This document shows, piece after piece, positions 971 to 60,333 of a stretch of DNA of 64,000 nucleotides. The DNA comes from Candidatus Entotheonellaceae bacterium (lineage in GTDB: Bacteria; Tectomicrobia; Entotheonellia; Entotheonellales; Entotheonellaceae). Both the position numbers and the translations under genes were made by a program. Numbering within the stretch: position 1 is the first letter of the stretch; each line of letters starts with the position of its first letter. The stretch is taken from NCBI GenBank assembly GCA_965238075.1, contig OZ250173.1, positions 128,001 through 192,000 of the forward strand. Direction: 5' to 3'. The notes under the pieces were generated by a model, which was not told the origin of the DNA, did not search any database, and worked only from the letters and a program-made list of their open reading frames with translations.

Positions 971-1033
971 ACCCACTCATAAAGAGGTTGCCAGCAGATG
1001 CCTCCGGTTGTATAAATGATAACGGTTTTCATT
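971..1033 (+). promoter_or_regulatory. Sigma70 promoter (TTGCCA-N17-TATAAA, 988-1016) overlapped by a Fur-like box (1015-1033), with an upstream palindromic site (971-988)
   Basis: AATGATAAC-G-GTTTTCATT is a 9-1-9 inverted repeat (8/9 match); all elements recur at 59820-59888. Confidence 0.75.
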
Positions 1034-1079
1034 ATTATATTTCCGGCGAGTAACTCCGCCGGCGCCGGAGGGACCCCCT

Positions 1080-1328
1080 ATGGATTCGGTTGTTGCAGAC
1101 ATACAGGAGAGCCTGCTTCAGGACTTCGGCAGCCGGCTGCGGCAAATGCGCAAGATGCGGCGGCTGCGGCAACTGGACATGGCCTCGTTCGGGTTGAGCT
1201 ACAAGTACTACCAGCGGATCGAGGCGGGCCAGGTGAACCCCACCTTGATCACCCTGCATCGGCTGGCATCGGCGTTCAATGTGTCGGTGTACGATTTCTT
1301 CCGCCCGGAAGTGACGACGGAAGCATGA
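1080..1328 (+). CDS. XRE/Cro-C1 family HTH transcriptional regulator (82 aa), copy 1
   Basis: FGSRLRQMRKMRRLRQLDMA...YYQRIEAGQVNPTLITLHRLASAFNVSV is a typical HTH_3 pattern. Confidence 0.9.
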   Translation: MDSVVADIQESLLQDFGSRLRQMRKMRRLRQLDMASFGLSYKYYQRIEAGQVNPTLITLHRLASAFNVSVYDFFRPEVTTEA

Positions 1329-1472
1329 GGCTGCCCAATTTACGCAGGCCGTACACCGTTCGGCGTTAAGCGCTCCGCTTCAGGCTCATTGAACAAAGTG
1401 CCTGACACGTCCTTCCTCCCTACGTGCAGGCGCGCCCGGCAGGGGTCGGCGGAGGCCCCTGCCACTCCCTGA
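1326..1472 (+). ncRNA. Candidate structured 3'-UTR sRNA with C-rich anti-SD loop, copy 1
   Basis: Hairpins at 1341-1353, 1398-1433 (loop CCTTCCTCCCT) and 1438-1463; compensatory changes relative to the copy at 60187-60333. Confidence 0.55.
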
Positions 1473-1608
1473 ATCACCCTGAGCGGTGCGATCCGCAACA
1501 ACGCACCGCTCTCCCAAACCTGGGTGCAATTTCCGGCCACTCACCTTATACTGCCCTGTCTTTTCGGACAGCCAGTCAACCCGCCCAATAAGGTGAATCC
1601 TCGCTCTG

Positions 1609-3776: not shown

Positions 3777-5405
3777 ATGGCGGCGTTGTTGGACATACAG
3801 GACCTGGCGGTGGATTTCCGTACCGAAGGCGGCGCCGTGCATGCCGTTGCGGGACTGTCCATGTCGATTGACCGCGGCGAAACCGTCGCCCTGGTCGGTG
3901 AATCCGGCTCCGGCAAGTCGGTCACGGCCCTAAGTGTTTTGCAACTGCTGCCCTACCCCACCGCCTCGCACCCCGGCGGCAGCATCCGGCTGGACGGCCA
4001 GGAGCTGCTTGGCGCGCCCGCTTCAACGATGCGTACAGTGCGCGGCAACCGCATCGCCATGGTCTTCCAGGAGCCCATGACGTCGCTCAACCCGTTGCAT
4101 TCCATCGACAAGCAGCTCGGTGAAACGCTGCGGCTGCACAAGGGCATGGGAAAGACGGGTGCACGACAACGAACCCTGGAATTGCTGCACCTGGTCGGTC
4201 TGGCCGAGGCCGAGAAACGCCTGACTGCCTTCCCGCACGAACTTTCCGGCGGCCAGCGCCAGCGCGTCATGATCGCCATGGCGCTGGCCAACGAACCCGC
4301 CCTGCTGATCGCCGACGAACCCACCACCGCGCTCGACGTCACCATTCAGGCGCAGATTCTGCAACTGCTCAAGAGCCTGCAGCGCCGGTTCAACATGGCA
4401 ATGCTGTTCATCACCCACGACCTGACCGTCGTGCGCAAGGTGGCCGACCGCGTCTGCGTCATGCAGCACGGCGTGATCGTCGAGACTGGCGCCACCGCCC
4501 GCATTTTCGAGACCCCCGCCCACCCCTACACCCAGCAGCTAATCCAAGCGCAGCCGAGCGGCACGGCACCGGCCGCCGCCGCCGCGGCGCCTCTGATACG
4601 GACCGAAGACCTCCGGGTCTGGTACCCCATCCGCGCCGGCCTGTTGCGCCGTACCGTCGATCACGTCAAGGCGGTGGACGGCCTGACGCTCACCGTGCAC
4701 GCCGGCCAGACGGTCGGGGTGGTCGGGGAATCCGGCTCCGGCAAGACCACCCTGGGCCTGGCGCTGCTGCGGCTCATTGCCTCGCGGGGCGTCATTCATT
4801 TCCGCGATACCCTCATCCAGGGATTGAAGTCGCGCGCCCTGCGGCCGCTGCGGCGGGAAATGCAGATCATCTTCCAGGACCCGTTCGGAAGCCTGAGCCC
4901 GCGTTTGTCGATTGCCCAGATCATCGAAGAGGGTCTCAAGGTGCACGGCACCGTAAGCACCGCCGAGGCGCGCGACGAAATCATTATCGCCGCGCTGCAA
5001 GAAGTAGGGCTCGACCCGGTAAGCCGGCACCGCTATCCGCACGAGTTTTCGGGCGGCCAGCGGCAGCGGGTGGCCATTGCCCGCGCTCTCGTGCTCAAGC
5101 CCGCTTTCATCGTCCTGGACGAGCCGACGTCTTCGCTCGACGTCAGCGTGCAGGCCCAGATTCTACTCCTGCTGCGCCAACTCCAGCGCGACCACAATCT
5201 CGCTTACCTGTTCATCAGCCACGACCTGAAGGTCGTGCGGGCGATGGCCAACTATCTGGTGGTCATGTACCGTGGCAAGGTCGTTGAAGAAGGCCCGACC
5301 GAGGCGATTTTCGAGCACCCCCGGGACGCCTACACCCAGCGCCTGTTGGCCGCCTCGCTTGACCTGGATTCCCCTCCGGACAATACAGTGGAGGGTGATC
5401 AGTAG
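3777..5405 (+). CDS. yejF: Peptide ABC transporter ATP-binding protein with two ATPase domains
   Basis: Two GESGSGK Walker A motifs, two SGGQRQR signatures; operon context. Confidence 0.92.
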   Translation: MAALLDIQDLAVDFRTEGGAVHAVAGLSMSIDRGETVALVGESGSGKSVTALSVLQLLPYPTASHPGGSIRLDGQELLGAPASTMRTVRGNRIAMVFQEPMTSLNPLHSIDKQLGETLRLHKGMGKTGARQRTLELLHLVGLAEAEKRLTAFPHELSGGQRQRVMIAMALANEPALLIADEPTTALDVTIQAQILQLLKSLQRRFNMAMLFITHDLTVVRKVADRVCVMQHGVIVETGATARIFETPAHPYTQQLIQAQPSGTAPAAAAAAPLIRTEDLRVWYPIRAGLLRRTVDHVKAVDGLTLTVHAGQTVGVVGESGSGKTTLGLALLRLIASRGVIHFRDTLIQGLKSRALRPLRREMQIIFQDPFGSLSPRLSIAQIIEEGLKVHGTVSTAEARDEIIIAALQEVGLDPVSRHRYPHEFSGGQRQRVAIARALVLKPAFIVLDEPTSSLDVSVQAQILLLLRQLQRDHNLAYLFISHDLKVVRAMANYLVVMYRGKVVEEGPTEAIFEHPRDAYTQRLLAASLDLDSPPDNTVEGDQ

Positions 5406-58968: not shown

Positions 58969-59819
58969 CGAACCTCTTATGAGAGAAGGAGCTAAATGGA
59001 AGGAACCCTGCGACGAATCAGGATTTGCCCATCCTTAGCATTACTTTCCTGATACTGTCAAGCGTCAATATTTCGGGCAGTTCTGACAGCAAGGTAATCG
59101 CACGAACCCTCCAATTTCATAGTGTTGCCCAACGCAACCGAGAAAGGAGGCGCTTCGTGCGACTGCTTCAGCGTTACTGCCGTAACTCACCCATAGCGGC
59201 CGGTCACATGCGCAACCTCCACCTGGAAGTTTGACCCTACAAGTCGGCGGTATCCCAAAAACAGACAGGGTCTTCACCGATTCCAGGCGTTTGGCACGAA
59301 AGGGTGCCGAAGAAAAAGCGGTTGTTTACCCGGTATTGGCATATGGAGATGTTCCGGGTTTATACATCGGACTCTAATGCCAGTCGTGCGCCTCGGGCAT
59401 CCGCAGGCGGGGTGTCGACGGCTTTCAGGTCCGACACGATGACAGCGCATTGCAGGCGAGACAAGGTGGGCGGGAAAAACCAGAAATAAAGCACTGGAAC
59501 AGAATATGGTGAGCGAGAGGCCCCTTTTCATAAAGTTGATCGGGGAAGGAGGTATTATCGGTGCGACGCCCTCCCCTAAGCAGGACTCTGTTCATAGCCA
59601 TCGGCGTTTTGACGACTTGAGAAATACGGCGCTGAGATTGTACATCCCGGTTGCCTCGACCCTTTTGGGTGCGATGGTGAAGTATCTCCTTTCTCCGAGT
59701 GAAATAGGCACCGCGTCAACCATCGCCGTGGCGTAACCAACTTGGAGTCCTGGAGACCCCGCTGGTTTCGGCCGTGCAAGCCATGCAGCTTAGCCCGCAC
59801 AAGGCAACAGCGCCAAGAT

Positions 59820-59888
59820 ACCCACTCATGAGAGGGTTGCCGATACTGGTGTCAGGGCGTATAAATGAAATTGATAACGGTTTTCATT
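59820..59888 (+). promoter_or_regulatory. Palindrome (59820-59837), sigma70 promoter TTGCCG-N17-TATAAA (59837-59865) and Fur-like box (59870-59888), copy 2
   Basis: ACCCACTCATGAGAGGGT; AATGAAATTGATAACGGTTTTCATTATTAT; homologous to 971-1038. Confidence 0.75.
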
Positions 59889-59939
59889 ATTATGTTACTG
59901 TGGCGGGAAGAACTTCCAAACACCGGGGGTAAGCCGTTC

Positions 59940-60189
59940 ATGGACTCGGTTGGTGTGAACCTGCAAAAACTGCGTGCTTCAGGATTTTGGCTGCCGGCTG
60001 CGGCAGATGCGCAAGATGCGGCGGCTGCGCCAAATGGATTTGGCCTCGTTCGGGCTAAGCTACAGGTACTACCAGCGGATCGAGGCGGGCCACGTGAACC
60101 CTACCCTGATTACCATGCACCGGCTGGCATCGGCGTTTGACGTGTCGGTGCACGATTTGTTCCGCCCGGAGATTCCAACGGAGGCCTAA
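59940..60189 (+). pseudogene. XRE regulator copy 2, +1 frameshift in an A5 run (or shorter intact form from GTG 59974)
   Basis: MDSVGVNLQK aligns to copy 1 MDSVVADIQE; remainder LQDFGCRLRQMRK...TEA lies in the next frame. Confidence 0.75.
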
Positions 60190-60333
60190 GGCGACTGATT
60201 CCGCGCAAGCCGCGCTCTCGTTGTCGCCTTAAGCGCTCCTCAGCTCACCCTTTGAACACATTGCCTCACGCCCTTCCCCCTCTGCGTCAGGCACACCCGG
60301 CAGGGGTCGCCGTGGGCTCCTGCCACTGCCTGA
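60187..60333 (+). ncRNA. Candidate structured 3'-UTR sRNA, copy 2
   Basis: Hairpins at 60202-60214 (inside stem 60187-60231), 60262-60293 (loop CCTTCCCCCTCT) and 60299-60324. Confidence 0.55.

Follow-up and report, generated by a model that had tools for sequence, protein, structure and literature searches.

A conserved, strand-specific RNA structure with a C/U-rich hairpin loop at the 3' ends of genes with Fur-box-like sites in one genus of Tectomicrobia

Does the DNA that follows a small regulator gene in a genome of the phylum Tectomicrobia encode an RNA with a role of its own, and what would such an RNA act upon? The window analysed here (the whole stretch of 64,000 nucleotides) contains a 280-nt gap between the gene of an 82-aa XRE-family helix-turn-helix (HTH) protein (1080-1328) and an ABC-transporter permease gene (1609-2730). 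The interval 1326-1472 is the start of this gap and opens at the stop codon of the HTH gene. The original prediction, which was made from the sequence letters alone, placed here a covarying RNA of three hairpins with an exposed anti-Shine-Dalgarno loop and proposed an iron-sparing small RNA processed from the 3' UTR under Fur control. All letters that it quoted for this interval and for a second copy at 60187-60330 are present. We conclude that the element is a real, conserved and strand-specific RNA structure, found in one genus and linked to genes with Fur-box-like sites, and that it is a plausible anti-Shine-Dalgarno small RNA or 3'-UTR riboregulator.

The second copy of the 3' region, at 60187-60330, and the first are parts of a duplicated module of about 850 bases, in which a small ORF, an A+T-rich promoter with a Fur-box-like site, the XRE-HTH gene and the 3' region follow in this order. 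The mean column identity between the two module copies is 77%. The 3.35-Mb genome contains two copies only; the remaining matches all have E values of at least 0.17. The features used below are as follows; mismatches are counted relative to a 19-mer Fur consensus.

1018..1036, + strand: Fur-box-like site GATAACGGTTTTCATTATT, HTH promoter of copy 1, 4 mismatches to the 19-mer consensus
1080..1328, + strand: XRE-family helix-turn-helix gene, copy 1, 82 aa (Pfam HTH_3, E = 5.7e-9)
1341..1353, + strand: hairpin A, TACG-CAGGC-CGTA, 4 bp, weak and confined to the genus
1388..1397, + strand: leader UUGAACAAAG, single-stranded and conserved; it forms the 5' limit of the conserved unit, where the similarity to the paralogue and to distant copies begins
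1398..1433, + strand: hairpin B, with 7 bp, a bulged A, 5 bp and the 11-nt loop CCUUCCUCCCU
1438..1463, + strand: hairpin C, 10-bp stem rich in G+C, 6-nt loop, not followed by a U-tract
1464..1475, + strand: 3' tail ACUCCCUGAAUC, partly conserved
1481..1511, + strand: hairpin D, 10 bp, GAGCGGTGCG...CGCACCGCTC, outside the core model, read from the sequence and alignments
59873..59891, + strand: Fur-box-like site of copy 2, identical in all 19 letters to that of copy 1
59974..60189, + strand: XRE-HTH reading frame of copy 2, 71 aa, GTG start
60203-60215, + strand: hairpin A of copy 2
60262..60293, + strand: hairpin B of copy 2, with the loop CCUUCCCCCUCU (60272-60283)
60299..60324, + strand: hairpin C of copy 2, with a G-C to G-U change

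Several irregularities were seen in the coding parts of the module. In the copy 2 HTH gene (59940-59975) the A-run at 59965-59969 has one extra base compared with copy 2 of genome G002, which puts the ATG at 59940 out of frame and leaves the 71-aa frame from the GTG at 59974 as the only one; the extra base may reflect a genuine frameshift or an error of sequencing. The small ORF located 5' of each HTH copy (646-917 and 59506-59736) matches no Pfam family and is a putative gene. Its copy 2 version has a hydrophobic C-terminal part, and the two versions differ by a 1-base indel, due to which the copy 1 frame ends early. In copy 1 of G002 (L013, about 1611-1664, - strand) the HTH stop codon reads TCA, not TGA, the frame extends by 17 codons to a TGA at the first bases of the RNA core, and a 16-nt deletion takes out part of the spacer. 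Since this frame stops at the initial TGA of the core, the core is untranslated in every case.

The conserved unit is about 90 nt long, from the UUGAAC at 1388 to a few bases past hairpin C. RNAalifold applied to nine sequences of the genus predicted hairpins B and C and did not predict hairpin A. The first two recur in 11 sequences, from six genomes of one genus and one metagenome contig. Hence two of the three hairpins originally proposed are real, while hairpin A is a 4-bp stem seen in the genus only and lying outside the conserved unit: in the nine sequences of the genus 30 of its 36 cells pair, with two pairs changed on both sides, and its region is unalignable in L094 or in the L061 / G004 extra copy. 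The loop of hairpin B (CCTTCCTCCCT in DNA letters, 1411-1421) contains UCCUCCC. Its length varies from 9 to 15 nt across the 11 sequences, and it consists of C and U only in eight of them and has a single A in each of the other three. The loop is predicted to be unpaired, and the exposed C/U-rich loop described originally is supported and conserved. Hairpin C of copy 1 has the letters GGCAGGGGTC-GGCGGA-GGCCCCTGCC.

The copy 1 core (1388-1475) taken as the + strand folds into exactly hairpins B and C, with z = -3.45 and none of 200 shuffles as good, whereas z = -0.45 was obtained for the - strand (61 of 200 shuffles as good). The corresponding values are z = -2.53 for the + strand of the L094 core (1/200) and z = -5.87 for the L061 core on its own strand (0/200). 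For the copy 2 core on the + strand z = -0.62, with 46 of 200 shuffles as good; the minimum-energy fold of this 86-nt core swaps hairpin B for another pairing, and the hairpin is present in the fold of a 154-nt stretch. By these folding energies hairpin B of copy 2 is thermodynamically marginal. The whole interval of the original prediction folds more weakly, with z = -1.59 for copy 1 and z = -2.62 for copy 2.

Individual sequences modify the stems. The extra copy in G004 has C-G in place of U-A at the top of hairpin B, and the apex of its hairpin C is GUCGC-CACA-GCGAC, replacing GUC-GGCGGA-GGC. An inserted A and a C-to-A change weaken hairpin C in G003 and in the sequencing run X5; as the same variant is shared by both, it is real and not an assembly error. 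Two further helices were considered and rejected. A closing helix around hairpins B and C (UUCAGG at 1378-1383 with CCUGAA at 1467-1472; in copy 2, CCUCAG with CUGAGG) appears in the folds of both copies, but was dropped because it is broken or deleted in copy 1 orthologues. A helix drawn by RNAalifold between alignment columns 22-25 and 53-56 was set aside, the region being unalignable outside the genus. The orthologues of copy 1 have hairpin D, copy 2 has a part of it, and a block GGTGCRATYCGCAAC is common to both copies after a 21-nt insertion. This hairpin could be the true 3' end of the RNA or a part of the leader of the ABC operon.

In the 11-sequence alignment, standard pairs occupy 97.0% of 237 cells, and a shift of the 3' partners by 1-3 columns brings this down to 31-57%; as the alignment was fitted to the structure, these counts are biased towards it. 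Ten of the 22 stem pairs are invariant and only two are changed on both sides. Among 500 shuffles, 60 reached the observed percentage of paired cells, 64 had as many two-sided changes, and the covariation score was matched by 40. The covariation claimed from two copies is therefore not significant with 11 sequences, and, given the fitted alignment, the structure is conserved and compatible with them, yet not proved by covariation. The strand assignment by G-U pairs was borne out: at two positions of the stems U-G is the most frequent pair, further G-U variants are present, and the + strand folds better in all 11 sequences, the mean energy being -39.1 vs -32.6 kcal/mol.

No family of Rfam matched the 64-kb window at the gathering score. 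At E values up to 10, the region 900-1700 yielded two unrelated eukaryotic families only, both on the - strand at 1008-1088. Accordingly, no known cis element or repeat was matched by the element, which had been named in advance as a possible refutation.

The distribution of the element was studied at several levels. A DNA search in 61 genomes found the HTH gene together with the 3' region in all five other genomes of the genus, and the HTH part only in two further genera. A covariance model, R1, was built from nine core sequences (86 positions, 22 base pairs). In 17 genomes of the phylum it matched six, all of the genus g1 and including the genome studied here (G000); the remaining 11, which belong to seven further genera, gave no match. 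It also found a new context: in G004, two identical copies of the element are located 33 nt past the stop codon of a TonB-dependent receptor gene. The intact receptor has 752 aa with Plug and beta-barrel domains. The second receptor copy is truncated to 280 aa next to transposase-like ORFs (4225-4999), and the locus (L102, G004:C1:1082000-1098000) contains a segmental duplication of about 6.4 kb that comprises the end of the receptor gene, the RNA element and the next gene.

A scan of metagenomes with a degenerate pattern gave 37 stretches, one of which, L094, is a true relative (62.7 bits, E = 8e-16 with R1); the other matches have E values of at least 0.046. At 26 loci with HTH homologues from other lineages R1 found nothing credible (best E = 0.037), and in the 11 other-lineage HTH loci inspected no hairpin with a C/U loop was seen within 200 nt after the stop codon.

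Sequence identity is 78-84% in the core, 55-65% in the spacer between the stop codon and the core and about 50% after the core; at the third codon positions of the HTH gene it is 65-78%. The strain represented by runs X1 and X2 differs from the window at four positions of the 59-nt spacer and at none of the 88-nt core. The family is young and known from one genus only, so that a part of this conservation reflects relatedness. The same core is located 3' of three upstream genes, always in the sense strand: HTH copy 1, HTH copy 2 and the TonB-dependent receptor.

The proposed link to Fur was strengthened. Sites with at most four mismatches to the consensus occupy seven positions at five loci of the genome, vs 0.78 expected genome-wide from base composition, and two of the five loci are the promoters of the HTH copies. 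The copy 1 site is invariant in orthologues. When 13 of roughly 40 HTH loci were checked, a Fur-box-like site was found 5' of the HTH gene at all nine loci from Tectomicrobia (three genera and L094) and at none of the four loci from other phyla. In G004, a site with three mismatches is located directly upstream of the intact element-bearing receptor gene and is flanked on the other side by a divergent gene of a periplasmic binding protein. As the HTH copies and the G004 receptor each have such a site, all three gene contexts of the element stand behind a Fur-box-like promoter. So far as sequence can tell, the iron link is stronger than the earlier reader could see, and Fur would presumably bind these sites.

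The genome has two Fur-family genes. One fur gene is located 4.4 kb upstream of copy 1, and between them lies an ABC importer, made up of a solute-binding protein, a permease and a TOBE-domain ATPase. In L094 an orthologous fur (80% identity over 50 residues) directly adjoins the HTH gene and is divergent from it. The fur gene near the locus studied (G000:C1:123688-124689, - strand, equal to L103:2188-3189) is a 333-aa open frame with the Fur domain at residues 32-148 followed by rubrerythrin and ferritin-like matches at residues 178-329, and may encode Fur fused to a di-iron domain.

Other Fur-box-like sites were recorded in passing. The other best sites of the genome are outside the window: the one at G000:C1:270075 precedes an imelysin (Peptidase_M75) gene, the one at G000:C1:1439653 precedes a gene whose orthologue in G004 carries DUF2325, and the one at G000:C1:1534646 is inside a coding region. 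L094 has a second site (937-961), 110 nt past the RNA element, and the product of the gene after it starts with a twin-arginine-type signal (SRRRLMGAG). In L042, from another genus of Tectomicrobia, the HTH homologue keeps the site (894-912) and has no hairpin with a C/U loop; 85 nt past this homologue (downstream of 1191) there is a gene that may be ferritin-like, as judged by eye.

An exposed C/U loop, a conserved leader, a fixed strand and a core that moves between genes with Fur-box-like sites together point to an RNA that pairs with purine-rich sequences, for which ribosome-binding sites would be the obvious class of partners. We tentatively favour the reading that the element is an RNA module that rides on transcripts of the Fur regulon and acts via its anti-Shine-Dalgarno loop, although we would put it at somewhat below an even chance. 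The module of about 90 nt, that is, the single-stranded leader UUGAACAAAG, hairpin B with a C/U loop of 11-13 nt and the G+C-rich hairpin C, would be transcribed as the tail of mRNAs behind Fur-box-like promoters. When iron is scarce, Fur would leave the promoter, and transcription of the upstream gene would yield the module as well. The loop of the module, similar to the anti-Shine-Dalgarno tail of 16S rRNA, would then pair with purine-rich ribosome-binding sites of other mRNAs and lower their translation in trans. The module may act after cutting near the A/U-rich leader, which we suggest as a processing site, or while still attached to the mRNA. Known RNAs with C-rich anti-Shine-Dalgarno loops work in this way, some of them without Hfq (PMC8034643, PMC9410917).

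The main rival is a role in cis only: the element would be a 3'-UTR or intercistronic structure in which hairpins B and C block 3' exonucleases and hairpin C also works as a leaky terminator or attenuator, setting the ratio of upstream to downstream gene expression in Fur-regulated operons with no targets in trans. We consider this doubtful, but it is to be taken seriously, in view of the transcription data. Nine RNA-type runs (X1-X9) from three studies contain part of the stretch. Four of them were compared as assembled contigs, which are blind to level, strand and ends, and DNA can occur in RNA libraries. A single contig covers 500-1899 in X1; in X2, from the same study, one covers 932-1899, with a break at 919-932; in X5, from a second study, one covers 1054-1900. 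Contigs of two studies thus run unbroken from the HTH gene through the element into the first part of the permease gene (1054-1899). X9 covers only 718-750, 1127-1333 and 1870-1900. The end of the X5 contig at 1054, just past the Fur-box-like site, was rejected as a transcript end, being the contig end of a single run, and for the same reason the X2 break and the X9 gaps were regarded as uninformative on transcript ends.

Further, a terminator scan does not call hairpin C, the tail ACUCCCUGAAUC being devoid of a U-tract. In the first 20 kb of the window, terminators with U-tracts number 24 vs 17.4 +/- 4.6 in shuffles, that is, they are not clearly enriched, and this, together with the strong, G+C-rich stems of the element, speaks for the role in cis. 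Copy 1 and the G004 element are each flanked by two genes of the same strand with no evident promoter in between, and a scan of the copy 1 region found no promoter between the HTH stop codon and the core. Since the contigs run through hairpin C into the permease gene and no U-tract follows it, nothing marks a discrete small RNA, and the role in cis remains a serious rival.

This explanation leaves two features unaccounted for, namely, the C/U composition of a 9-15 nt loop, kept in all lineages, and the conserved single-stranded UUGAAC leader. Moreover, the next gene is convergent in copy 2 and has its own Fur-box-like site in L094, so that operon tuning cannot be the shared role of the element. 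In favour of processing, RNase E/G is encoded in the genome. Against the preferred reading, neither Hfq nor CsrA was found in it (the genome is scored as 93% complete).

Partners of the loop were sought by computing the duplex energies of both loops against Shine-Dalgarno-like windows genome-wide. At -13 kcal/mol or better there were 11,845 and 20,420 windows for the two loops, and no discriminating targets emerged; at -17 kcal/mol or better there were 2,423 for the copy 1 loop and 7,678 for the other. The 206 starts common to both loops likewise have no discriminating power in a genome with 62% G+C. One high-ranking start, of a nitrite-reductase-like gene, was rejected as evidence, as Pfam assigned to it a fragment of pyridine-nucleotide-disulphide oxidoreductase only.

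The loop might instead fold back on the Shine-Dalgarno site of its own mRNA and limit translation of the upstream gene, as the 3' UTR of icaR in Staphylococcus aureus reportedly does. Pairing with the ribosome site of the HTH gene is feasible, with 7 bp in copy 1 and energies from -10.2 to -15.5 kcal/mol in eight sequences. These energies are ordinary, however, and no better than the genome background, where the copy 1 loop alone has the 2,423 windows mentioned above, and from copy to copy the loop and the ribosome site show no clean pattern of joint change. This makes self-pairing very unlikely.

That the inverted repeats act as DNA, being palindromic operators for the HTH protein or another regulator, is highly improbable. 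The HTH gene next door and the strong conservation of the stem letters, with the ten invariant pairs, would suit an operator; but U-G pairs, the commonest at two positions and joined by more G-U variants, are mismatches in a DNA palindrome, the - strand folds worse in 11 of 11 sequences, the orientation relative to the upstream gene is constant, and one copy follows a receptor gene without an adjacent HTH gene. Least credible of all is the absence of any function, with chance G+C-rich hairpins left over from a recent segmental duplication: despite the restriction of the family to one genus and the position of copies 1 and 2 inside a larger duplicated module, conservation of the core clearly exceeds that of the DNA flanking it on both sides, and in G004 the core stands behind an unrelated gene with nothing else of the module.

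The preferred reading, an RNA module on Fur-regulon transcripts with an anti-Shine-Dalgarno loop, can be extended. The element might be a portable riboregulator cassette that, as the genus evolved, was added to the 3' ends of various Fur-regulated genes (those of the TonB-dependent receptor and of the two HTH paralogues) and borrows their iron-responsive promoters. We regard this extension as unlikely; if true, it would mean a promoter-less, modular spread of an iron-sparing anti-Shine-Dalgarno small RNA within a regulon.

To our knowledge, no regulatory RNA has been described in this candidate phylum. A literature search for small RNAs of Entotheonella gave nothing on the subject, judging by titles and the starts of abstracts. 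The preferred reading, if true, would make the element the first candidate regulatory RNA in Tectomicrobia, the phylum of Entotheonella-like sponge symbionts. Fur-linked small RNAs that block ribosome-binding sites would then have arisen independently once more, here attached to the tails of genes for iron uptake and for regulators, and in a genome that yielded no Hfq. The element offers a short, concrete and testable sequence for studying the iron economy of uncultured symbionts.

Among known systems, the element may be compared first with the CcsR or 'cuckoo' RNAs. As described in PMC8034643, these have anti-Shine-Dalgarno loops CCUCCUCCC, one on each of two hairpins, and are released by RNase E from the 3' UTR of a small-protein gene at A/U-rich sites. 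The element resembles CcsR1-4 of Rhodobacter sphaeroides (Alphaproteobacteria) in having a C/U anti-Shine-Dalgarno hairpin loop, with UCCUCCC inside CCUUCCUCCCU, a small protein gene upstream and paralogous copies. In contrast to CcsR, it carries the motif on hairpin B only, the loop of hairpin C being GGCGGA. The partner gene differs too: in CcsR it is a DUF1127 gene (CIN1 context) under the control of RpoHI/HII, and here it is the gene of an XRE-HTH protein or a TonB-dependent receptor behind a Fur-box-like site. Finally, the element does not match the cuckoo models (Rfam ar14 and related) and belongs to another phylum.

IsrR and FsrA are, according to PMC9410917, Fur-repressed RNAs whose single-stranded C-rich regions pair with Shine-Dalgarno sites, IsrR being independent of Hfq. 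The element shares with IsrR (Staphylococcus) and FsrA (Bacillus) a C-rich region, here predicted to be single-stranded, and a linkage to Fur boxes, here to Fur-box-like sites, in a genome where Hfq was not found. Unlike it, both are free-standing genes with Fur boxes at their own promoters and a canonical terminator; here the Fur-box-like site is about 370 nt upstream, before a protein gene, and there are one C-rich loop and no U-tract. No relation to IsrR and FsrA in sequence or in Rfam was found.

The proposed logic, in which Fur derepression yields an RNA that represses non-essential iron proteins, is that of RyhB and PrrF; these, however, depend on Hfq and have other seeds and structures, and the element has neither a match to them in Rfam nor an Hfq found in its genome. 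With intrinsic (Rho-independent) terminators it has in common a G+C-rich hairpin at the 3' end of a gene; it differs in that no U-tract follows hairpin C, contigs from RNA libraries continue past it, and a second conserved hairpin with its loop precedes it. On the preferred reading, the module would form a new family with a mode of action like that of CcsR, FsrA or IsrR; it belongs to none of these families.
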